Shown here: in pieces, positions 32,990 to 43,639 of the stretch
How the letters are laid out: every line of letters starts with the position of its first letter
Numbering within the stretch: the first letter of the stretch is position 1
Assembly (NCBI GenBank): GCA_035540755.1
Contig: DATLGD010000223.1
Location: forward strand, 152 to 64,151
Direction: 5' to 3'
DNA: 64,000 bases
Source of the DNA: Mycobacteriales bacterium
GTDB lineage: Bacteria > Actinomycetota > Actinomycetes > Mycobacteriales > SCTD01
Translations under genes and position numbers: made by a program
Notes under the pieces: generated by a model
The model's database searches: none
Told to the model about the DNA's origin: nothing
What the model saw: only the letters and a program-made list of their open reading frames with translations

Positions 32990-33174
32990 GGAACTCCTCG
33001 GCAGGGCTGGACGCTGGCTGGGACCGGTCGCGACCCTAACCGCGGCGCCGGGGCGCCCTCCGCGCGGGCGGGGTGTCCAGCGGTGGACGCGTCGCGCACC
33101 CCGCGGGTAGATTCGCCTTCCGGTTGAGCCAGCAGCCGCCGTTCCGCGTCCCGGACTCCAAGGACAGGCTGACG

Positions 33175-33810
33175 ATGACGACCTCGCCACGTCGTGGACC
33201 CCTGCCCGGTCTGCGCACCGAAGCAGAGCTGGCCCGCATGCAGCTCGACGCCCTGGACCGCTGGAACCGCGCCCGCCGGACGGCCGAGGACGCCTCCCGC
33301 CCGGGCCGCCCCTCCCGCGAGATGCGGATGGACCTCTCCCGGCGCCTCGAGGTGCTGCGCGCGCAGCACGAGGCGATCGTGGCCCGTGCGGACCGACACC
33401 TCGAGGACAGCGTCCACCTGCTGGGCCGCAGGGCCCCCTGCCGCGCGGTCCTGGTGCACCGCAACGAGTGGTTCACCGGCAAGGTCGCCGACGCGCTGTC
33501 GGCAAGGGGGGTGCAGGTGGTCGCCGCGCTCGACAACGGCGCGGAGGCGGTCGGCGTCGTCGTGGCCGAGCAGCCGGACCTGCTGCTGGTCGAGGAGACC
33601 CTGCCGATGCTGCCCGGCGAGGAGGTGGTGCGCGAGGCGCGCCGGTACGCGCCGACCACGCTCATCGGTGCGCAGGTCGACTACCAGGACCGCATCCCGG
33701 CGCTGCTCGACGCCGGCGCGCTCACGGCGTTCACCCGGCGGGTGCCCCCGGCCGACGTCGCGCAGGGCCTGCTCGAGCTGCTCGGGACCCGGGCCGCGGC
33801 GCCGGCCTGA
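33175..33810 (+). CDS. receiver-like (pseudo-receiver) domain protein with an N-terminal helical region
   Basis: From ATG 33175 in ORF 33073..33810. The C-terminal ~120 aa follow the CheY-like beta-alpha pattern (AVLVHRNEW...PDLLLVEETLPMLPG...TTLIGAQ...AFTRR). The acidic pocket and the phospho-acceptor Asp are substituted. Confidence 0.6.
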   Translation: MTTSPRRGPLPGLRTEAELARMQLDALDRWNRARRTAEDASRPGRPSREMRMDLSRRLEVLRAQHEAIVARADRHLEDSVHLLGRRAPCRAVLVHRNEWFTGKVADALSARGVQVVAALDNGAEAVGVVVAEQPDLLLVEETLPMLPGEEVVREARRYAPTTLIGAQVDYQDRIPALLDAGALTAFTRRVPPADVAQGLLELLGTRAAAPA

Positions 33811-34074: not shown

Positions 34075-35616
34075 GTGAAGGTGCCGTTCACGACCGCCGA
34101 CTTCCTCGACCGCGCGCGGCAGGTCTACCCGCAGCGCAGCGGCGTCGTCGACGAGCCGGGGAAGCACCAGGACGGCGGGCTCGGCACGCTCAGCTACGCG
34201 CAGCTGGCCGCGCGCGCCGCCGGCATCGCCGCCGGGCTCGACGTCCTCGGCCTCGCTCGCGGCGACCGGGTGGCCGTCGTCAGCCACAACAGCGCGCGGC
34301 TGCTCGAGCTGTTCTTCGGCGTCACCGCCTGGGGGCGGGTGCTCGTGCCGGTGAACTTCCGGCTCTCGCGCGACGAGGTCGCCTACATCGTCGAGCACAG
34401 CGGCGCGCGGGTGCTGCTCGTCGACCCCGAGCTCGACGACGCGCTGGCCGACGTCCCGGCCGAGCACCGGCTCGTGCTCGGCACGGGCTCCGACGCGGCG
34501 CTCGTGCGGACGGGCTCCGCGCCGGCGCCCTGGGAGGAGCCGGACGAGGACGCCACGGCGACGATCAACTACACCAGCGGAACCACCGCCCGGCCGAAGG
34601 GCGTGCAGATCACCCACCGCAACCTCTGGGTGAACGGCGTGACCTTCGCTCTGCACGTCGGCGCGAGCGACCGCGACGTCTACCTGCACACGCTGCCGAT
34701 GTTCCACGCCAACGGCTGGGGGATGCCGTTCGGGCTGACCGGCCTCGGCGTCCCGCAGGTCGTCCAGCGCAAGATCGACGGCATCGAGATCCTGCGCCGG
34801 GTCGAGCGGTACGGCGTCACCCTGATGTGCGCGGCGCCGGCCGTCGTCACCTCCGTGCTCGAGGCCGCCCAGGCCTGGGACCGGCCGGTGCCCGGTCGCG
34901 GCCGCACCCGCATCGTCGTGGCCGGGGCGCCGCCGCCCAGCCGGACGATCCAGCGGGTCGAGGAGGAGCTGGGCTGGGAGTTCCTGCAGATCTACGGACT
35001 CACCGAGACCTCCCCGCTGCTCACGGTGAACCGGCGCCGCGCGGAGGAGGACGAGCTGCCGGTCGAGGAGCGGGCCCGGCGGCTCGGCCGGGCAGGGGCC
35101 CCCGCGCTCGGGACCCGGATCCGCATCTCGGAGTCCGGCGAGGTCCTCGCCCGCGGCAACACCGTGCTCGAGGGCTACTGGCAGCAGCCCGAGGCCACGG
35201 CCGACGCGCTCGAGGGCGGCTGGTTCCGCACCGGCGACGGCGGCACGCTCGACGACGAGGGCTACCTGAGCATCCGCGACCGCAAGAAGGACGTGATCAT
35301 CAGCGGCGGCGAGAACGTCTCGTCGATCGAGGTGGAGGACTGCCTGTTCTCCCACCCGGCCGTCGCCGAGGTGGCGGTGATCGGGGTCCCGAGCCAGAAG
35401 TGGGGCGAGACGATCAAGGCGCTGGTCGTCCTGGCCGACGGCGCCTCGGCCGACGAGCAGGAGCTCATCGCGCACTGCAAGGCGCGGCTGGCCGGCTACA
35501 AGGCGCCGACGTCGGTGGAGCTCCGGGAGGCGATCCCGCGCACGGCGACCGGCAAGGTGCAGAAGTTCAAGCTGCGCGAGCAGTACTGGCAGGGGCACGA
35601 CCGCCAGGTGAACTAG
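34075..35616 (+). CDS. acyl-CoA synthetase / AMP-dependent ligase
   Basis: From GTG 34075 (GAGGAG upstream) in ORF 33874..35616. AMP-binding motifs YTSGTTARPKGV, YGLTE, TGD, DRKKDVIISGGENV and the C-terminal GK. Confidence 0.9.
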   Translation: MKVPFTTADFLDRARQVYPQRSGVVDEPGKHQDGGLGTLSYAQLAARAAGIAAGLDVLGLARGDRVAVVSHNSARLLELFFGVTAWGRVLVPVNFRLSRDEVAYIVEHSGARVLLVDPELDDALADVPAEHRLVLGTGSDAALVRTGSAPAPWEEPDEDATATINYTSGTTARPKGVQITHRNLWVNGVTFALHVGASDRDVYLHTLPMFHANGWGMPFGLTGLGVPQVVQRKIDGIEILRRVERYGVTLMCAAPAVVTSVLEAAQAWDRPVPGRGRTRIVVAGAPPPSRTIQRVEEELGWEFLQIYGLTETSPLLTVNRRRAEEDELPVEERARRLGRAGAPALGTRIRISESGEVLARGNTVLEGYWQQPEATADALEGGWFRTGDGGTLDDEGYLSIRDRKKDVIISGGENVSSIEVEDCLFSHPAVAEVAVIGVPSQKWGETIKALVVLADGASADEQELIAHCKARLAGYKAPTSVELREAIPRTATGKVQKFKLREQYWQGHDRQVN

Positions 35617-35655
35617 CGGCGCGTGAGGCGCCGCCGCACGGGGCAGGTGGCCGGC

Positions 35656-35967
35656 ATGACCTCACCGGAGCCGAAGGACAGCACGACCACCACCGAGGGG
35701 GCGGCCCCCGCGAGCGCAGCGGACGCCGCCGCCGGCGTCCGCGGCGGCAGCCCCGACCGCATGGACGCCGCGCCCGGCTCGGGCGGCCTGGCCGGCGCCG
35801 GGGCCGACGGCGAGACCGGCGCACGCGAGCAGCTGCGCAAGGACCTCGACGAGCGGCCCTCGGATGCCGGCACCGAGGAGGGCGGGGACCTCGAGCAGGC
35901 CGCGGCGATCGGCGAGACCGACGACCCGCAGGGCGGCAGCCTGCAGCCGGGCGGCGCCGGCGCCTGA
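35656..35967 (+). CDS. small acidic low-complexity protein (103 aa), hypothetical
   Basis: ATG 35656 in ORF 35623..35967. MTSPEPKDSTTTTEGAAP...EQLRKDLDERPSDAGTEEGGDLEQAAAIGETDDPQGG. Confidence 0.4.
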   Translation: MTSPEPKDSTTTTEGAAPASAADAAAGVRGGSPDRMDAAPGSGGLAGAGADGETGAREQLRKDLDERPSDAGTEEGGDLEQAAAIGETDDPQGGSLQPGGAGA

Positions 35968-36040
35968 CCCCGGCAGGCGGCCGCGCGCCACGCCGGGCCG
36001 GCTGCGGGCCGCACGGCGCGCGGCGTGCCATCGTCGGCGC

Positions 36041-36757
36041 GTGCGGGTCGCGACGGTGGAGGGACTCACCCCCGACGGGATGACGCTCGTCCTGCGGCTG
36101 CCGGGCGACGGGGACGGCGCGGACGGTGAGCGCATCGAGGTGCCGGTGGCCGACGTCCGCCGGGCCCAGCGGGCCGCGCCCACCCTCCCGCTCGGCGGCG
36201 GGCCCAGCCCGCGCGAGGTCCAGCAGCGCATCCGCAGGGGTGAGACGGCCGAGGACATCGCCCGGGGCTGCGGACTGCCGGTGGCCGACATCGCCCGCTA
36301 CGAGGGGCCGGTGCTCGGCGAGCGCGCCCACCAGGCCGCGCTCGCCCGGGCCGTCGAGGTCGACGGTCGCCGGGTCGAGGACCTCGTCGTCGAGCACCTG
36401 GCCCGCACCGCCGGGACCGACACGCCGGTGGTCTGGGACAGCCGGCAGACCGACCCGCACCGCTGGGAGGTGCACGCCACCGCCGGCCAGGCCTCGGTGC
36501 TGCTCGCCTTCGACCCCCGCGCCGTCCGCGTCGACCCGGTCGACCAGGCGGCCCGGCAGGCGTTCGGGCTCGCCCCGCCACCTCCGGACGCGCTCGAGGA
36601 CGTGCTGCGCCCGGTGCGCCGCGCTCCGCGCCCGCCCGCCGAGCGGGCCGCGGCTGCGTCATCGCCCCGACGCGGGCGGGCGCAGGTGCCGCTGTGGGAC
36701 GAGATCGGCGCCGAGGTCTCCGGGAGGCCTTCGGCCGCCGACGACGGAGCGGGCTGA
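36041..36757 (+). CDS. sepH: DUF3071 / SepH-like cell-division protein
   Basis: From GTG 36041 in ORF 35864..36757. SPREVQQRIRRGETAEDIARGCGLPVADIARYEGPVLGERA closely parallels the DUF3071 HTH core of Streptomyces SepH as I remember it. Confidence 0.7.
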   Translation: MRVATVEGLTPDGMTLVLRLPGDGDGADGERIEVPVADVRRAQRAAPTLPLGGGPSPREVQQRIRRGETAEDIARGCGLPVADIARYEGPVLGERAHQAALARAVEVDGRRVEDLVVEHLARTAGTDTPVVWDSRQTDPHRWEVHATAGQASVLLAFDPRAVRVDPVDQAARQAFGLAPPPPDALEDVLRPVRRAPRPPAERAAAASSPRRGRAQVPLWDEIGAEVSGRPSAADDGAG

Positions 36758-36778
36758 CCGTCGACCTACGATCCACCC

Positions 36779-37510
36779 ATGTCCCTCGGTGCCCGCCTCT
36801 CCGCGATCTTCGGCCGCCGACGCGGCGACGACGACCCGATCGCCGAGCTGGACGCCTCCTACGCCCAGCAGTCGGCCCTGCTGCAGCAGAGCCGGCGCGG
36901 CGTCGCCGACGTCGTCACGGCCCGCAAGCGCGTCGAGCTGCAGGTGCGCTCGCTCGAGCAGAAGGCCGCCCGGCTCGAGTCCGAGGCGCGCGAGGCGCTG
37001 CACGCCGATCGGGAGGACGCCGCCCGCGAGCTGCTGGTGCGCCGCGCCGGGCTGCTGCAGCAGGCAGGGGCGCTGCAGCCCGACCTCGACCGCCTGCAGG
37101 ACCAGGAGGGCCGGCTGCAGGAGTCGGTGCAGCGGCTGGAGGTCAAGGTCGAGGCCTTCCGCACCCAGAAGGAGACCGTGAAGGCGGGCTACAGCGCCGC
37201 CGAGGCGCACAGCAGGATCGGGGCGGCCTACGCCGGCATCTCCGAGGAGAGCGCCGACGTCGGGCTCGCGCTCGAGCGCGCCCGGGCGCGCACCGAGCAG
37301 ATGCAGGCCCGCGCCGACGCCGCCGACTCGCTCGCCGCCGCCGACAGCGGCGCGCTGCCCTGGGAGTCGGCCGGCGAGAGCGCCGAGCGCCGGCTGGCCG
37401 CCCTGCAGGCCGGCGACGGGGTGGAGGCCGAGCTGGCCAGGCTGCGCGGCGCGGGTGGCCGACTGCGCGGACCCGGCGCGGCGGGCCCCGACGCGGAGGC
37501 GGCCCGGTGA
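36779..37510 (+). CDS. pspA: PspA/IM30 family protein
   Basis: ORF 36779..37510. Long heptad-rich coiled coil (AELDASYAQQSALLQQSRRGVADVVTARKRVELQVRSLEQKAARLESEAREAL). Confidence 0.85.
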   Translation: MSLGARLSAIFGRRRGDDDPIAELDASYAQQSALLQQSRRGVADVVTARKRVELQVRSLEQKAARLESEAREALHADREDAARELLVRRAGLLQQAGALQPDLDRLQDQEGRLQESVQRLEVKVEAFRTQKETVKAGYSAAEAHSRIGAAYAGISEESADVGLALERARARTEQMQARADAADSLAAADSGALPWESAGESAERRLAALQAGDGVEAELARLRGAGGRLRGPGAAGPDAEAAR

Positions 37511-37797
37511 TCGTGCGCATCCTCACCGAGGGCCAGGTCGACCTGCCGGACGCCCTGCTCGACGAGCTCAACGTCCTCGACGCCGCGGCCGAGCAGGCCG
37601 TCGACGCCGGCGACGAGGCCGCGTTCTCCGCCGCCCTGGGACGACTGCTCGACCGGGTCCGCACCGGAGGCCGGCGACTGGCCGACGACGTCCTGGTGCC
37701 GTCCGACCTCGTGCTGCCCCCGCCGGACGCCACCATCGACGACGTGCGGCACCTGTTCGACACCGCCTCCGGCGCCGACGGGCTGGTGCCCGGATGA
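37507..37797 (+). CDS. PspA-associated small acidic protein (probable PspAA family)
   Basis: GTG 37507 overlaps the pspA stop (GTGA). VIVRILTEGQVDLPDALLDELNVLDAAAEQAVDAGDEAAF...LVPSDLVLPPPDATIDDVRHLF...GLVPG matches my recollection of PspAA proteins. Confidence 0.6.
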   Translation: MIVRILTEGQVDLPDALLDELNVLDAAAEQAVDAGDEAAFSAALGRLLDRVRTGGRRLADDVLVPSDLVLPPPDATIDDVRHLFDTASGADGLVPG

Positions 37798-38690
37798 GCC
37801 GGCGCGGGCGGTTCGCCCCGGACCGGCAGCTGAGCACCCGCATGGTGCTCGTCGTCTTCGCCCTCGGCCTGCTCTACGTGGTCGCGATCGCCGGGCTCAT
37901 CGCCTACGGGCTCAACCCGCTGCTCGTGCTGCTGGTCGCCGGCGGCTTCTTCGCCTTCCAGTACTTCGGCAGCGAGTCCATGGCGCTGCGCGCGCTCGGC
38001 GCACGCGAGGTGTCACCGCAGGAGGAGCCGGCGCTGCACGGCGTCGTCGACCGGCTGTGCGCGCTGTCCGACACCCCGAAGCCGAGGGTGGCGGTGGCCC
38101 ACAGCGACGTGCCGAACGCCTTCGCCACCGGCCGAAGCCCCGACCGCGCCGTCGTCTGCGTCACGACCGGGCTGATGCGGCGGCTCGAGCCGGACGAGCT
38201 CGAGGGCGTGCTCGCTCACGAGATGTCGCACGTCGCGCACCGCGACGTGGCGGTGATGACCGTGGCGTCGTTCCTCGGCGTGCTGGCCGGGCTCGTCGCG
38301 CGGTTCTCGATGCGGGCGATGTTCTACACCCGGGGTCGGCGCGACTCCCGCACCATCCCGATGTTCCTCGCGGTCGTGGTGGTGTCGGCGGTCGTCTACG
38401 GCATCAGCTTCCTGCTCATCCGGGCGCTGTCGCGCTACCGCGAGCTGTCGGCCGACCGCACGGCCGCGCTGCTCACCGGGCGGCCGTCGTCGCTGGCCTC
38501 GGCGCTCACCAAGGTGAGCGGCGAGATGGCCCGGGTGCCGACCGAGGACCTGCGGGAGGCCGAGCCGTTCAACGCCTTCTTCTTCGCCCCCGCGCTCGCC
38601 GCCGGGTTCAGCTTCTCCTCGCTGTTCGCCACGCACCCGCCGCTGGAGCGGCGGCTGGCCCAGCTGTCGCGCATGTCCGGCCAGCTGTGA
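37794..38690 (+). CDS. htpX: M48-family zinc metalloprotease HtpX
   Basis: ATG 37794 (ATGA overlap). Two N-terminal TMs, HEMSH zinc motif (GVLAHEMSHVAHRD), two further TMs, ELSADR. Confidence 0.9.
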   Translation: MSRRGRFAPDRQLSTRMVLVVFALGLLYVVAIAGLIAYGLNPLLVLLVAGGFFAFQYFGSESMALRALGAREVSPQEEPALHGVVDRLCALSDTPKPRVAVAHSDVPNAFATGRSPDRAVVCVTTGLMRRLEPDELEGVLAHEMSHVAHRDVAVMTVASFLGVLAGLVARFSMRAMFYTRGRRDSRTIPMFLAVVVVSAVVYGISFLLIRALSRYRELSADRTAALLTGRPSSLASALTKVSGEMARVPTEDLREAEPFNAFFFAPALAAGFSFSSLFATHPPLERRLAQLSRMSGQL

Positions 38691-38697
38691 GGGACTG

Positions 38698-39288
38698 ATG
38701 GGCTGGCTCGACGCGCTGCTCGGCCGCAGCTCGCCGGTCGCGCCCGACCTCGACGCCCTGTTCGCGCTGCCGTCGGCGGCCGTGACGCTCGAGGCCGCCA
38801 CCGGCCTGCAGCCGACCGGCACCGGCGCCGTCTGCGTCAAGCCGGCCGAGGGCCCGGCGTTCGCCAGGGCGCACGAGGAGGCGCTCGCCCTGCTGCGCCT
38901 CGACGACGCCGCGCACGTGGACGAGCTGCGCGACTCCTTCGGCTTCCTGTGGAGCACGGTCCGGACCGCGCCGGACCGGCTCGCCGACGTCGTCACGGCC
39001 CTGCACGGGGCGAACACCAGCTACGGGTCGGCCGGCTTCGGGCCGAGCCTGCTGTGCTCCGGAGTCGGCTTCGCCGGCGACGTCGAGGGCCGGCCGCGCA
39101 CCGTCGGGCTGGTGTACCTGTACAAGCGCGGGACCTTCTACCCCTTCGCCCCGGTCGGACCGCAGCAGCGCGACACTGCCCTCGAGCTGCAGCTGCGCGG
39201 CACCCTCGCCGCCGACCTGCCCGTCGAGACCGAGCTGCAGCGCTGGTTCGCCGTGTGGGACGCGCCCTTCCTCAGCCCCGAAGGCTGA
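38698..39288 (+). CDS. PspA-associated protein (possible PspAB family), 196 aa
   Basis: ORF 38698..39288, 7 nt after htpX. MGWLDALLGRSSPVAPDLDALFALPSAAVTLEAATGL... resembles the PspAB N-terminus from memory. Needs an HMM check. Confidence 0.5.
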   Translation: MGWLDALLGRSSPVAPDLDALFALPSAAVTLEAATGLQPTGTGAVCVKPAEGPAFARAHEEALALLRLDDAAHVDELRDSFGFLWSTVRTAPDRLADVVTALHGANTSYGSAGFGPSLLCSGVGFAGDVEGRPRTVGLVYLYKRGTFYPFAPVGPQQRDTALELQLRGTLAADLPVETELQRWFAVWDAPFLSPEG

Positions 39289-40657
39289 TCCAGGCCAGGT
39301 AGACCCGACGGCCGCTGGCTGTGCCCGTCGCCTCGATGACGAAGGTGCCGGTGATCTCGGTGCCGTCCTTGCGCAGGACCGGGAGGTCGAGCTCCACGCC
39401 GAGGACGTGCGCCTCGCCGGTCGACAGGTGCCGGGTGAACCCGGCGACGTGCGCCTCCCGGAACCGAGGCGGCACCAGCGTGACCACGCGGCGCCCGACG
39501 AGCTCATCCGGGGCGTAGCCGAGGGCGTCGGCCAGCGGTCGGCTGACGGCGAGGATGCGGTTGGCGTCGTCGGCGGCCACGGCGCCGCGGTCGGTGTCAC
39601 GCACGGTGCTCTCGTCCCAGCCGACGTCGAGCGGCGCACCGCCGTCGTGCACCAGGTCGGTGAACCGCTCGTGGTCGGCGCCGGCCCACGCCGCCGGAGC
39701 TCCACCGGACAGCTGGCTGATGACCTGTGTGCAGGCCCAGTCGCGCACGGCCACCACCTCGGGCAGGCCGGGGCGCACCAGCAGCGCGTCGGCGACGGCC
39801 AGCCGCTCGGCGGCGTCGAGCACGTCCTGCAGCGCCCCGAACGCCGGTGCCGAGCCGGGCGGCACGTCGAGCTCGAGGTCGAGCGAGGCGGGCACCTCCG
39901 GCAGTGGCGCGGGGTGGCCGTCCGGCAGGGGCAGGCGCTGGTGCCCCTGCGACCGGGCGTGCGCGACCGTTGCTTCGAGCGCGGTGTTGACGATGGCGCG
40001 GGCGGCGTCGGCCTGGGCCAGGTCGGCGTCATCCACCGGGCAGTCGAGGTGCTCGGCCCGGTAGAGGGCCAGCTCGCGGAGCACGGCGTCGTGGTGCTGC
40101 CGGGCGGCCAGCCACAGGGTCGGCGGCATGCCGCGCAGCACCACCCGAGCCAGGTCCGCCGGCGGCGCGACCGGAAGTGCGGACCCGTCCTCCGGCAGGT
40201 CCCAGCCGCCCTCGTCCCACCCCCCGTCGCCCCACTGGGCGAGCAGGTCGTCCTCGGAGCCCTCGTCCGGCCGTCTGCCCAGGCAGAACCACACCACTTT
40301 GCCGTCGGCGCCCAGCGGGGTGACGCCGTGCGCGTCGGTGACCGCCTCGACCAGCGCCATGCCGCGGCCGGTGGTGGCCTGGTCGTCGTACTCCCGCTGC
40401 CGGGGCAGGGCCGGGTTGCGGTCGCGGACCTCCACCCGGACGTGGTCGTCCGCGAGCCGCACTGTGAGGTCGAAGCCGGTGTGGGCGTGCAGCACGACGT
40501 TCGTGACGACCTCGCTGATCGCCAGCTCGGCGGGCTCCACCCAGGCGTCCCACCCGGCGTCGAGGAGCAGGCTGCGCACGAAGCGGCGGGCCTCGCGCGC
40601 GCTGAGGCTCGCCGGGTCGAACGCGCGGGTGCGCTCGAGCACCGCGTCGTCGGGCAC
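39272..40657 (-). CDS. RsbW-like HATPase (anti-sigma-type Ser kinase fold) fused to a C-terminal PAS domain
   Basis: From GTG 40657 (GGAGG upstream) in ORF 39272..40744. N-terminal ELAISEVVTNVVLHAH...VRDRNP...GRGMALVEAV, then a central domain of about 170 aa of unknown type, then a C-terminal PAS-like fold (ANRILAVSRPLADALGYAPDELVGR...LRKDGTEI). Confidence 0.7.
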   Translation of the reverse strand: MPDDAVLERTRAFDPASLSAREARRFVRSLLLDAGWDAWVEPAELAISEVVTNVVLHAHTGFDLTVRLADDHVRVEVRDRNPALPRQREYDDQATTGRGMALVEAVTDAHGVTPLGADGKVVWFCLGRRPDEGSEDDLLAQWGDGGWDEGGWDLPEDGSALPVAPPADLARVVLRGMPPTLWLAARQHHDAVLRELALYRAEHLDCPVDDADLAQADAARAIVNTALEATVAHARSQGHQRLPLPDGHPAPLPEVPASLDLELDVPPGSAPAFGALQDVLDAAERLAVADALLVRPGLPEVVAVRDWACTQVISQLSGGAPAAWAGADHERFTDLVHDGGAPLDVGWDESTVRDTDRGAVAADDANRILAVSRPLADALGYAPDELVGRRVVTLVPPRFREAHVAGFTRHLSTGEAHVLGVELDLPVLRKDGTEITGTFVIEATGTASGRRVYLAWISLRG

Positions 40658-40757
40658 TGGGCCTCCGCAGGTGGAGCAGTCGGTCCGGCGGGTCCTACCC
40701 GGTGCGAGCGCCCGGGAACCGCCGGGGCACGCCGGTCGGTACACCTAGGGTGACCCG

Positions 40758-42287
40758 GTGCCCCGTGCCCTCGACCCCGCCTTCCGGGCCTTGCCCCTCG
40801 ACGCCTGCAGCGACGCCGCCCTGCAGGCCGCCCGCGACGTCGGGGCCACCCACGCCGACGTGCGCATCGAGCGGCACCTGGGTCAGGACCTGTCGCTGCG
40901 CGACGGGGCGCTCGAGAGCCGGCACGACGCCGTCTCCGCCGGGCTGGCCGTGCGGGTGGTGGTCGACGGCACGTGGGGGTTCGCCAGCAGCAGCACCGTG
41001 TCGGAGCAGGAGGCGGTCCGGCTCGCCCGGCAGGCCGTGCAGGTGGCTCGGACGGCCCGGCCGCTGAACGCCGAGCCGGTCGAGCTGGCCGACGAGCCGG
41101 TGCACGCCGGCGAGGTCTGGCTGTCGGCCTACGACGTCGACCCCTTCGACGTGCCGGTCGCCGACAAGACGGAGCTCCTCGGCGGCTGGAGCCGCGACCT
41201 GCTCGCCTCCCCGGACGTGCAGCACGTCGACGCGGTCCTGCAGCAGGTGCTCGAGTGCAAGCACTACGCCGACAGCGCCGGCACCCGCACGAGGCAGCAG
41301 CGGGTGCGCGTGCAGCCCCGCGTGACGGCGACCCACGTCGGAGCCGACGGGCGCTTCGAGACCATGCGCACCAACGCGCCGCCGGCCGGGCGCGGCTGGG
41401 AGTATCTGACCGGCACCGGCTGGGACTGGGAGGCCGAGCTGGCCCGGCTCCCCGAGCGGCTGGCCGGGAAGGCGGCGGCCCGCAGCGTCGAGCCGGGCCG
41501 CTACGACCTGGTGCTGGACCCCACCAACCTGTGGCTGACCATCCACGAGTCGGTGGGCCACGCCACCGAGCTCGACCGGGCGCTCGGCTACGAGGCGGCC
41601 TACGCCGGCACGTCCTTCGCCACGCTCGACCGGCTGGGGTCGCTGCGCTACGGCTCGGCCCTCATGCACGTCACCGGCGACCGCACGGCGCCGCACGGCC
41701 TGTCCACGGTGGGGTTCGACGACGAGGGCGTGGCCGCGCAGTCCTGGGACCTGGTCCGCGACGGCGTGCTCGTCGGCTACCAGCTCGACCGTCGGATGGC
41801 CCGGCAGAACGCCGCGGCGCTGGGCACCGCCCCGGCGTCCGCCCGCTCCAACGGCTGCGCGTTCGCGGACTCGCCGTCGCACGTGCCGCTGCAGCGGATG
41901 CCGAACGTGTCGCTGCAGCCCGACCCCGACGGGCCCGGCACCGAGGCGCTGATCGCCGGGGTGGAGCGCGGCATCTACGTCGTCGGGGACAAGAGCTGGT
42001 CGATCGACATGCAGCGCTACAACTTCCAGTTCACCGGCCAGCGGTTCTACGAGATCCGCAGCGGGCGGCTGGTCGGTCAGCTGCGCGACGTCGCCTACCA
42101 GGCCACGACCACGGACTTCTGGGGTTCGCTGGACGCCCTCGGCGGCCCCTCGACGTACCTGCTCGGCGGGGCGTTCAACTGCGGCAAGGGCCAGCCCGGC
42201 CAGATCGCGCCCGTCTCCCACGGCTGCCCCGCGGCGCTGTTCCGCGGAGTGTCGGTGCTCAACACCACCGCGGAGGCGGGCCGATGA
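40758..42287 (+). CDS. tldD: TldD-family metalloprotease
   Basis: ORF 40758..42287. The HESVGHATELD motif matches the TldD HExxxH zinc site. C-terminal GGAFNCGKGQPGQ. Confidence 0.85.
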   Translation: MPRALDPAFRALPLDACSDAALQAARDVGATHADVRIERHLGQDLSLRDGALESRHDAVSAGLAVRVVVDGTWGFASSSTVSEQEAVRLARQAVQVARTARPLNAEPVELADEPVHAGEVWLSAYDVDPFDVPVADKTELLGGWSRDLLASPDVQHVDAVLQQVLECKHYADSAGTRTRQQRVRVQPRVTATHVGADGRFETMRTNAPPAGRGWEYLTGTGWDWEAELARLPERLAGKAAARSVEPGRYDLVLDPTNLWLTIHESVGHATELDRALGYEAAYAGTSFATLDRLGSLRYGSALMHVTGDRTAPHGLSTVGFDDEGVAAQSWDLVRDGVLVGYQLDRRMARQNAAALGTAPASARSNGCAFADSPSHVPLQRMPNVSLQPDPDGPGTEALIAGVERGIYVVGDKSWSIDMQRYNFQFTGQRFYEIRSGRLVGQLRDVAYQATTTDFWGSLDALGGPSTYLLGGAFNCGKGQPGQIAPVSHGCPAALFRGVSVLNTTAEAGR

Positions 42288-43639
42288 GCGCGGACGTCGT
42301 CGAGCAGGCTCTGGCCCTGTCCCGGGCGGACGGCTGCCTCGTCATCGTCCGCGAGACCCGCCGGGTCGACCTGCGCTGGGCCGGCAACAGCCTCACCACC
42401 AACGGCGCGGACGCCAGCCGGTCGGTGACCGTCATCAGCGTCGTCGGCGAGGCCGTCGGCGTCCGCAGCGCCAGCGGCTTGGACGACGTCGAGTCCCTGG
42501 TGCGGTCGAGCGAGGACGCCGCGCGCGAGGCGCAGCCGGCCGAGGACGCCGGCCCGCTCGTGGAGGGCGGGGCCGACGCCGACTTCGAGGCGCCCGCGCC
42601 GCCGGTGGCGCCGGACGTGCTGAGCACGTTCGCCGCCGACCTCGGCGACCGGTTCGGTGCGGCTCGCGGCGACGGCCTCCGCCTCTACGGCTACGCCACG
42701 CACGACGTCACGACGACCTGGCTGGGCTCCTCGACCGGGCTGCGCCGCCGGCACAGCGCCCCGACCGGCTACGTCGAGCTCACCGGCAAGGACGGCCGGC
42801 CGGGCGGCTCCTCGTGGGTCGGGCAGTCGACCCGCGACTGGCTCGACGTCGACGTCGACGGCCTCGACGCCGAGCTGCGCCGCCGGCTCGCGTGGGGCGC
42901 GCGGACGGTCGATCTGCCGGGCGGTCGCTACGAGACGCTCCTCCCGCCGAGCGCCGTGGCCGATCTCATGATCTCGGCGTACTGGCGGATGTCGGGTCGC
43001 GACGCCGCCGAGGGCCGCAGCGTCTTCAGCCGGGCCGGCGGGCGCACGAGGGTCGGCGAGCGGCTCGGTCCGGCGGGGCTGCGGGTCTGGAGCGATCCCC
43101 GCGACCCGCTGCTCGTCACCACGCCGTTCGCGGTGACGACGTCGTCGTCGTCGGTGACGAGCGTCTTCGACAACGGTCTGGACCTGCCGGCCACCGACTG
43201 GGTGCGCGACGGCGAGCTCGTCGCACTGCTCGAGACGCGGGCGACGGCGCGCGGCCGCAGCGCCCCGGTGACGCCGTACGTGCACAACCTGGCCATGGAC
43301 GCCGGCGGCACCGCGACCACCGACGAGATGGTCGCGGGCACCGATCGCGGCCTGCTGCTGACCTGCCTGTGGTACATCCGCGAGGTCGACCCGCAGACGC
43401 TGCTGGTCACCGGGCTCACCCGCGACGGCGTCTACCTCGTCGAGGGCGGGGAGGTGGTCGGCGCGGTGAACAACTTCCGCTTCAACGACAGCCCGGTGGA
43501 CCTGCTGTCCCGGGTCACCGAGGTGGGGCGCAGCGAGCGCGCGCTGCCGCGCGAGATGAGCGACTACTTCACCTGGAGCCGGATGCCCACCCTGCGCGTG
43601 CCGGACTTCCACATGAGCTCGGTGAGCCAGGCCAGCTGA
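42284..43639 (+). CDS. TldD/PmbA-family protein (PmbA/TldE-like partner)
   Basis: ATG 42284 (ATGA overlap with tldD) in ORF 40973..43639. It has the family C-terminus (GLLLTCLWYIREVDPQTLLVTGLTRDGVYLVEGGEVVGAVNNFRFNDSP) but no HExxxH, as expected for the non-catalytic partner. Confidence 0.8.
   Translation: MSADVVEQALALSRADGCLVIVRETRRVDLRWAGNSLTTNGADASRSVTVISVVGEAVGVRSASGLDDVESLVRSSEDAAREAQPAEDAGPLVEGGADADFEAPAPPVAPDVLSTFAADLGDRFGAARGDGLRLYGYATHDVTTTWLGSSTGLRRRHSAPTGYVELTGKDGRPGGSSWVGQSTRDWLDVDVDGLDAELRRRLAWGARTVDLPGGRYETLLPPSAVADLMISAYWRMSGRDAAEGRSVFSRAGGRTRVGERLGPAGLRVWSDPRDPLLVTTPFAVTTSSSSVTSVFDNGLDLPATDWVRDGELVALLETRATARGRSAPVTPYVHNLAMDAGGTATTDEMVAGTDRGLLLTCLWYIREVDPQTLLVTGLTRDGVYLVEGGEVVGAVNNFRFNDSPVDLLSRVTEVGRSERALPREMSDYFTWSRMPTLRVPDFHMSSVSQAS

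Follow-up and report, generated by a model that had tools for sequence, protein, structure and literature searches.

PspAA and PspAB are two protein families that were defined by using comparative genomics (Ravi et al. 2024, mSystems, PMC11237479). In the same study, the gene order PspA->PspAA->TM(s)+Metallopeptidase+TM(s)->PspAB, where TM denotes a transmembrane segment, was tabulated for Thermobifida fusca (Tfu_1009) and Frankia (Franean1_2534), the gene set was described as two dyads, and the association was also recorded independently in Firmicutes and Archaea. Other arrangements listed there include peptidase-PspAB-PspA-PspAA in Moorella and, in Streptomyces coelicolor (SCO2168), PspA followed by PspAA, a histidine kinase and a response regulator. 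Here we analyse a 64,000-nucleotide (nt) stretch of DNA from a Mycobacteriales bacterium (contig DATLGD010000223.1), the whole of which is called the window. An initial annotation, made from its letters, had picked out pspA, genes for a 96-amino-acid (aa) and a 196-aa protein, and an htpX protease gene as a tightly coupled envelope-stress block beside a SepH-like division gene. With a probability of roughly 85%, we read this locus as an ordinary example of pspA-pspAA-htpX-pspAB, the four-gene envelope-stress operon of the Psp type in Actinomycetota, which is built from two conserved dyads.

The window locus differs in nothing essential from the published operon (PMC11237479). Gene order, domain content, phylum and the division into two dyads are identical; this copy lacks a SHOCT-like third gene, and in its clade pspA appears to be leaderless and adjoins sepH. 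Published work, Pfam and NCBI annotation already contain the operon architecture together with the families and names of both partners, and this is a typical copy that brings nothing new in kind. Its value is as a reminder of a widespread stress module that is biochemically untouched. Within the library searched, a literature search for experiments on PspAA or PspAB, or for an HtpX–PspA link, in actinobacteria returned comparative-genomics papers only, the defining study being the sole one that describes PspAA or PspAB, and the initial annotation was therefore fair in calling the roles of both proteins uncharacterised. Its interpretation is supported with two qualifications, namely that the idea of such a module is not new and that SepH lies outside the conserved unit. 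What the comparative data described below do is sharpen the focus: HtpX, not PspA, is the likelier partner of PspAB, and PspA that of PspAA, the genes of the latter two sharing a 4-nt overlap in every case, and a link to SepH is not expected.

Other described systems share individual components with the window locus. The S. coelicolor SCO2168 type has the PspA-PspAA dyad in common with it, but there the dyad is tied to a histidine kinase and a response regulator and here to HtpX-PspAB; in the Streptomyces loci that we compared, htpX-pspAB stands alone. The Escherichia coli pspF/pspABCDE system likewise has a PspA/IM30 membrane-stress effector, whereas the window locus is without PspB, PspC and PspF and has PspAA, HtpX and PspAB as partners. 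The clgR-pspA-rv2743c-rv2742c operon of Mycobacterium tuberculosis and the window locus are both actinobacterial PspA operons with lineage-specific partners, although ClgR, PspM and PspN are absent from the window locus, which carries another partner set. E. coli HtpX is a Cpx-induced M48 membrane protease that serves alongside FtsH in membrane protein quality control. The window HtpX shares its M48 HEXXH motif and 2+2 transmembrane layout and, by analogy, is presumed to take part in membrane-protein quality control. It differs in having an obligate downstream pspAB partner gene; to our knowledge, E. coli htpX has no such partner.

The block was compared with 90 related loci, 80 from Actinomycetota genomes and 10 from closer relatives (L081–L090), in which genes were placed by tblastn. 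At every one of them (90/90), htpX lies immediately 5′ of pspAB, and the gap between the two has a median of 4 nt in the 85 loci measured. Both pspA and pspAA were found at 68 of the 90 loci. The overlap between these two genes is 4 nt at 63 of 63 loci and also in L085–L090, a total of 69 of 69 with the window counted, and the A of the pspA TGA is supplied by the codon for an invariant Ile2 of PspAA. Two of the 22 loci without pspA-pspAA are cut by a contig end. At 20 loci (19 Streptomyces and 1 Actinacidiphila), htpX-pspAB occurs with neither pspA nor pspAA within 5 kilobases upstream; the gene before htpX in L019 is that of an ABC transporter.

Taken together, the universal htpX-pspAB adjacency, the unvarying pspA/pspAA overlap and the 20 loci without pspA-pspAA indicate that the unit consists of two dyads that are often joined. 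As judged from gene order, PspAB tracks HtpX, not PspA, and the name ‘PspA-associated’ may mislead for PspAB, because so many loci carry htpX-pspAB with no pspA or pspAA nearby. The ATGA overlap that joins pspAA to htpX is kept in the closest relatives (L081–L086), and elsewhere this junction ranges from −4 to 460 nt. The four-gene block is intact in L084–L090 despite differing flanks, and gene order and junctions are kept down to about 52% PspAB identity in many actinomycete families.

Profile searches place each product of the block in its family. Residues 35–224 of the PspA protein match Pfam PspA_IM30 with 84.2 bits (cut-off 33.9). The 96-aa protein, which the initial annotation had likened to PspAA, is assigned to Pfam PF22743 (E = 7.9e-32; 109.8 bits, cut-off 27), its residues 1–96 covering the full profile (positions 1–92 of 92). 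PspAA is acidic (isoelectric point (pI) 4.05), has no transmembrane segment and is predicted to be cytoplasmic. Its start codon is backed by an invariant MIVRI N terminus in homologues, residues R4, D25 and R52 are invariant among 38 aligned sequences, and its exact database match is VM433_14945. The C-terminal tail, DGL(I/V)PG (window 37780–37794), is conserved and predicted to be disordered.

With respect to pspA, the reading frame of pspAA is shifted by −1, and a single-base change would therefore yield a PspA-PspAA fusion, and such fusions have been reported in some Actinobacteria and Chloroflexi. A programmed −1 frameshift that would produce the fusion was considered and set aside, as no slippery heptamer precedes the stop codon (G GCC CGG TGA).

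The HtpX protein exceeds the cut-off of the NCBIfam equivalog model NF002669 (432.2 versus 341 bits) and matches Pfam Peptidase_M48 with E = 1.9e-35. Its best NCBIfam match is of the PRK02391 type; against the E. coli-type PRK05457 model it scores 130 bits, where the cut-off is 245. The zinc motif HEMSH occupies residues 142–146, and YRELSAD downstream provides the expected glutamate ligand. Four strong hydrophobic segments (residues 18–36, 40–58, 151–169 and 191–209) are arranged in a 2+2 topology, and a fifth (261–279) is barely over threshold. Among solved structures, 3cqb, a fragment of an HtpX homologue, matches the window protein with E = 2.7e-14.

The 196-aa protein likewise belongs to the family to which the initial annotation had likened it. 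It is assigned to Pfam PF22742 (E = 3.5e-61; 206.8 bits, cut-off 27), with residues 1–191 covering the full profile (positions 1–189 of 189), and the NCBI product name of its homologues is ‘PspA-associated protein PspAB’. The protein is soluble (pI 4.69, no transmembrane segment) and has an exact database match, VM433_14955; with E ≤ 1e-5 as the threshold, the query matches at least 6,343 PspAB clusters formed at 90% identity. Invariant residues are D5, G9, R10, E51, D79, H103, C120, K143, R144, R158, D159, W183 and W187; the presence of E51, D79, H103 and C120 in this set prompted the idea that PspAB may be an enzyme. The C-terminal tail of PspAB, RWFPVWGAPGL (window 39240–39275), is conserved as well, and like that of PspAA it could be a docking peptide.

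AlphaFold2 models of PspAA and PspAB were built from homologue alignments. The PspAA model (predicted local distance difference test (pLDDT) score 84.8) has strands at residues 2–5, 9–12, 56–58 and 68–70, which form two β-hairpin-like pairs, and helices at 15–33, 37–54 and 77–87. This predicted fold matches the published description (Ravi et al. 2024), in which the positions of the authors’ R and D residues are not specified. The PspAB model (pLDDT 90.2, predicted template-modelling score 0.86) is a mixed α/β structure with a short conserved N-terminal helix, whose invariant sequence is GxLDALLGR. A Foldseek search of the PDB with the PspAA model gave a best E value of 1.8 and helical-hairpin matches only. 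With the PspAB model, the best PDB match had E = 0.011 and a query template-modelling score of at most 0.39, covering only partial ferredoxin-like or BMC-like sub-domains, and the best match in BFVD (E = 0.0018, template-modelling score 0.30) offered no usable analogue. Profile searches of PDB sequences returned nothing under E = 0.1 for either protein. The confident models of PspAA and PspAB thus match no solved fold.

The SepH-like gene and the four genes of the block stand in a row on the plus strand at 36041–39288 (Table 1), in a window of about 75% G+C. Coordinates, lengths, both overlaps, the 7-nt gap and the 21-nt distance between the SepH-like gene and pspA all read from the sequence as the initial annotation gave them. 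From pspA to pspAB the junctions measure −4, −4 and +7 nt, which leaves no space for internal terminators, and GGAGG at 37495–37499 lies 7 nt 5′ of the pspAA GTG. This junction geometry points to a probable single mRNA from pspA to pspAB with coupled translation. A scan of 35400–39600 for intrinsic terminators found 0 sites, none at the junctions, with about 0 also in shuffled sequences, and no RNA family was detected by Rfam at gathering thresholds in 35000–40000.

Table 1 Features of the pspA-pspAB block and its immediate borders in the window
Feature	Positions	Strand	Description
SepH-like (DUF3071) gene	36041–36757	+	GTG start, TGA stop, 238 aa; outside the conserved unit
sepH/pspA gap	36758–36778		21 nt
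TACGAT, candidate −10 hexamer	36767–36772	+	6 nt before the pspA ATG
pspA (PspA/IM30 family)	36779–37510	+	243 aa; Pfam PspA_IM30
GTGA overlap	37507–37510	+	GTG, pspAA start; TGA, pspA stop; read from the sequence
pspAA	37507–37797	+	96 aa; Pfam PF22743
ATGA overlap	37794–37797	+	ATG, htpX start; TGA, pspAA stop; read from the sequence
htpX, M48 zinc metalloprotease	37794–38690	+	298 aa; NCBIfam NF002669, Pfam Peptidase_M48
htpX/pspAB junction	38689–38697	+	GAGGG (Shine–Dalgarno-like) overlaps the htpX stop; 7-nt gap gggactg before pspAB
pspAB	38698–39288	+	196 aa; Pfam PF22742
HATPase_c_2 + PAS gene	39272–40744	−	convergent, closes the block; overlaps the last 17 nt of pspAB; domains from Pfam

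No Shine–Dalgarno sequence precedes the pspA ATG in the window. A −10-like hexamer, TA(C/G)GAT, lies at the same distance from pspA in L081/L082, L083, L084, L085 and L086, and reads TAGGCT in L089, while the flanks diverge. In all seven of these close relatives (six with TA(C/G)GAT) the spacing is 6–7 nt and a Shine–Dalgarno sequence is lacking. The hexamer is kept in L081/L082 though the gene upstream of pspA lies on the other strand, and in L086 the sepH stop codon TAG falls inside it. At 58 more distant loci, a GAAGGGGA-type ribosome-binding site stands before pspA instead. Leaderless actinobacterial transcripts have a −10 hexamer that ends about 7 nt before the start codon. The spacing observed here matches that pattern and thus suggests that pspA in this clade is transcribed from a promoter of its own into a leaderless mRNA. 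Read-through from sepH into pspA is possible in this genome, because 21 nt is too short for a terminator.

If the locus is such an operon, its transcription in this clade would begin at this promoter, with TACGAT 6 nt before the ATG of a leaderless pspA mRNA. PspA, an ESCRT-III-like IM30 protein, would bind and seal damaged membrane, as established knowledge of PspA/IM30 proteins suggests. Re-initiation of translation where pspA stops would always yield PspAA, which, to go by gene order, may bind PspA in the cytoplasm and govern how PspA assembles or is targeted. HtpX, with its active site facing the cytoplasm, would clear misfolded membrane proteins in the manner of its E. coli namesake, and gene order likewise points to PspAB as a possible cytoplasmic regulator or adaptor partner of this HtpX subfamily, not of PspA. 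The operon would in this way co-produce a membrane-sealing polymer and a protease for damaged membrane proteins. A more specific proposal, which we regard as tentative and give somewhat worse than even odds, is that PspAB is no partner of PspA but a dedicated cytoplasmic regulator or substrate adaptor of a distinct HtpX subfamily, the PRK02391 type, with a fold that is absent from solved structures, and that PspAA is a general regulator of PspA assembly where PspB, PspC and PspF are absent. If this proposal is correct, the operon would be two autonomous machines fused together, each made of two proteins, one of them an uncharacterised control subunit.

Several points weigh against reading the locus as a standard stress operon of two dyads. 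The locus sample is limited, as it consists wholly of Actinomycetota loci similar to the query. The pairing of PspA with the protease appears, from the arrangement of the genes, to be facultative, because many lineages have a loose pspAA-htpX junction, of up to 460 nt, and the dyads also occur apart. The functional roles proposed for PspAA and PspAB all come from gene order. PspA itself falls far short of the equivalog cut-offs of both the E. coli-type PspA (TIGR02977, 43 versus 242.95 bits) and Bacillus subtilis LiaH (NF045984, 26 versus 380), and is thus a member of the family only rather than an orthologue of the studied proteins. Furthermore, a scan of 35400–39600 for consensus (E. coli-type) sigma-70 promoters returned 0 sites, and the call of a candidate −10 element relies on conservation among close relatives; with 75% G+C and with shuffled sequences that also give about 0, the promoter and terminator scans are uninformative.

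The presence of pspA in the same cluster at 68 of the 90 loci, together with the fact that the PspAB domain was found through pspA neighbourhoods and named accordingly, would also suit a different arrangement, in which PspAB acts on PspA, for example as a second PspA regulator, and HtpX, though co-expressed, is only an effector that is not linked directly to PspAB. We consider this unlikely, since pspAB always lies directly 3′ of htpX, a median of 4 nt away, and since htpX-pspAB persists at the 20 loci without pspA and pspAA, including the one where an ABC transporter gene stands upstream; in Moorella, too, PspAB follows the peptidase, not PspA. It is harder still to credit that the four genes form no functional module and owe their tight spacing to incidental packing in a compact, high-GC genome. 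Four-nucleotide overlaps are indeed common in bacterial genomes. Against incidental packing stand an order and junctions that persist amid changing flanks in many actinomycete families, down to about 52% PspAB identity, and an association found independently in Firmicutes and Archaea, and we regard it as a very improbable explanation.

An additional question is whether sepH belongs to the operon, so that a five-gene unit would act at the septum and link Z-ring regulation with membrane repair and quality control. SepH was described as a DUF3071 protein with a helix-turn-helix (HTH), a C-terminal K/R patch and a conserved motif of about ten residues (Ramos-Leon et al. 2021, eLife, PMC7968930). 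The window protein matches Pfam DUF3071 over residues 1–147 (E = 4e-25) and NCBIfam SepH (NF040712) with 75.3 bits against a cut-off of 40, over profile positions 55–154 of 351 only, that is, the DUF3071 core. Its start is backed by a database protein of the same length (238 aa) with 100% identity, and also by homologues whose N terminus reads MRxxxVEGLTPDG. In alignment with SepH proteins of 342–398 aa, the HTH region is conserved and a basic patch, RRGR, followed by AQVPLWDEIG, which includes the C-terminal VPLWDEI motif, aligns with GRSSMPSWDEIVFG. The protein belongs to a clade of compact proteins of 225–250 aa; compared with the Streptomyces venezuelae SepH (344 aa), it is shorter (238 aa) and has a far shorter linker. 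The hallmarks of SepH are thus present in this neighbour, which may be the division SepH, but a second DUF3071 paralogue may lie elsewhere in the metagenome-assembled genome of which this 64-kb window is a part.

Besides these hallmarks, a five-gene operon is favoured by the position of sepH on the same strand, 21 nt from pspA and with no terminator found by the scan in between, and by the recurrence of this adjacency in two relatives, L083 and L086, with distances of 20 and 9 nt, respectively. However, 86 of the 90 related loci have no DUF3071 gene 5′ of pspA. The four that do are L081, L082, L083 and L086, and in the closest relatives, L081/L082 (81% PspAB identity), a minus-strand gene for a SpoIIE (PP2C) phosphatase, located just 5′ of pspA, intervenes between the two. 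In L084, L085 and L087–L090 unrelated genes occupy the place upstream of pspA, and the SepH-like gene is likewise missing there from all 80 genome loci. The conserved −10-like hexamer right before the pspA ATG also suggests an independent start. Moreover, all four loci with the SepH-like gene keep a small upstream open reading frame (ORF), and those whose flank extends far enough (L081, L083 and L086) also keep the AMP-binding gene, so that the adjacency looks like plain local synteny. SepH was therefore rejected as a member of the unit; the conservation pattern marks it as a separate gene that is nearby through local synteny only, and a five-gene sepH operon is decidedly improbable.

The small ORF (35623–35967, plus strand) lies between the AMP-binding gene and sepH and encodes an acidic, Ala/Gly-rich protein of 114 aa with no Pfam match. 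It has tblastn matches in L081, L082, L083 and L086 (E = 3e-33 to 4e-11) and is probably a real conserved small gene. Between it and the DUF3071 gene, L081 (495–1169) and L083 (2220–2846) carry a gene for a 208–224-aa protein with no Pfam match. This gene is absent from the window, where the small ORF and the DUF3071 gene are only 73 nt apart. Further upstream, an ORF at 33073–33810 (plus strand) precedes the acyl-CoA synthetase-like gene at 34111–35616 and has a weak Response_reg match (24 bits, under the Pfam cut-off of 30.2).

On the downstream side, the convergent gene that closes the block encodes a protein of 490 aa that combines an RsbW-like HATPase_c_2 domain with a PAS domain at the C terminus. 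Its 17-nt overlap with pspAB recurs in L081, L082 and L083, and the gene is absent in L086. Together with the SpoIIE gene of L081/L082, it indicates that partner-switching signalling genes flank the psp block in this clade. Beyond it lies a TldD/PmbA metalloprotease gene pair (40758–42287 and 42284–43639, plus strand) with overlapping start and stop codons; L081, L083 and L086 keep this pair downstream of their psp blocks too.

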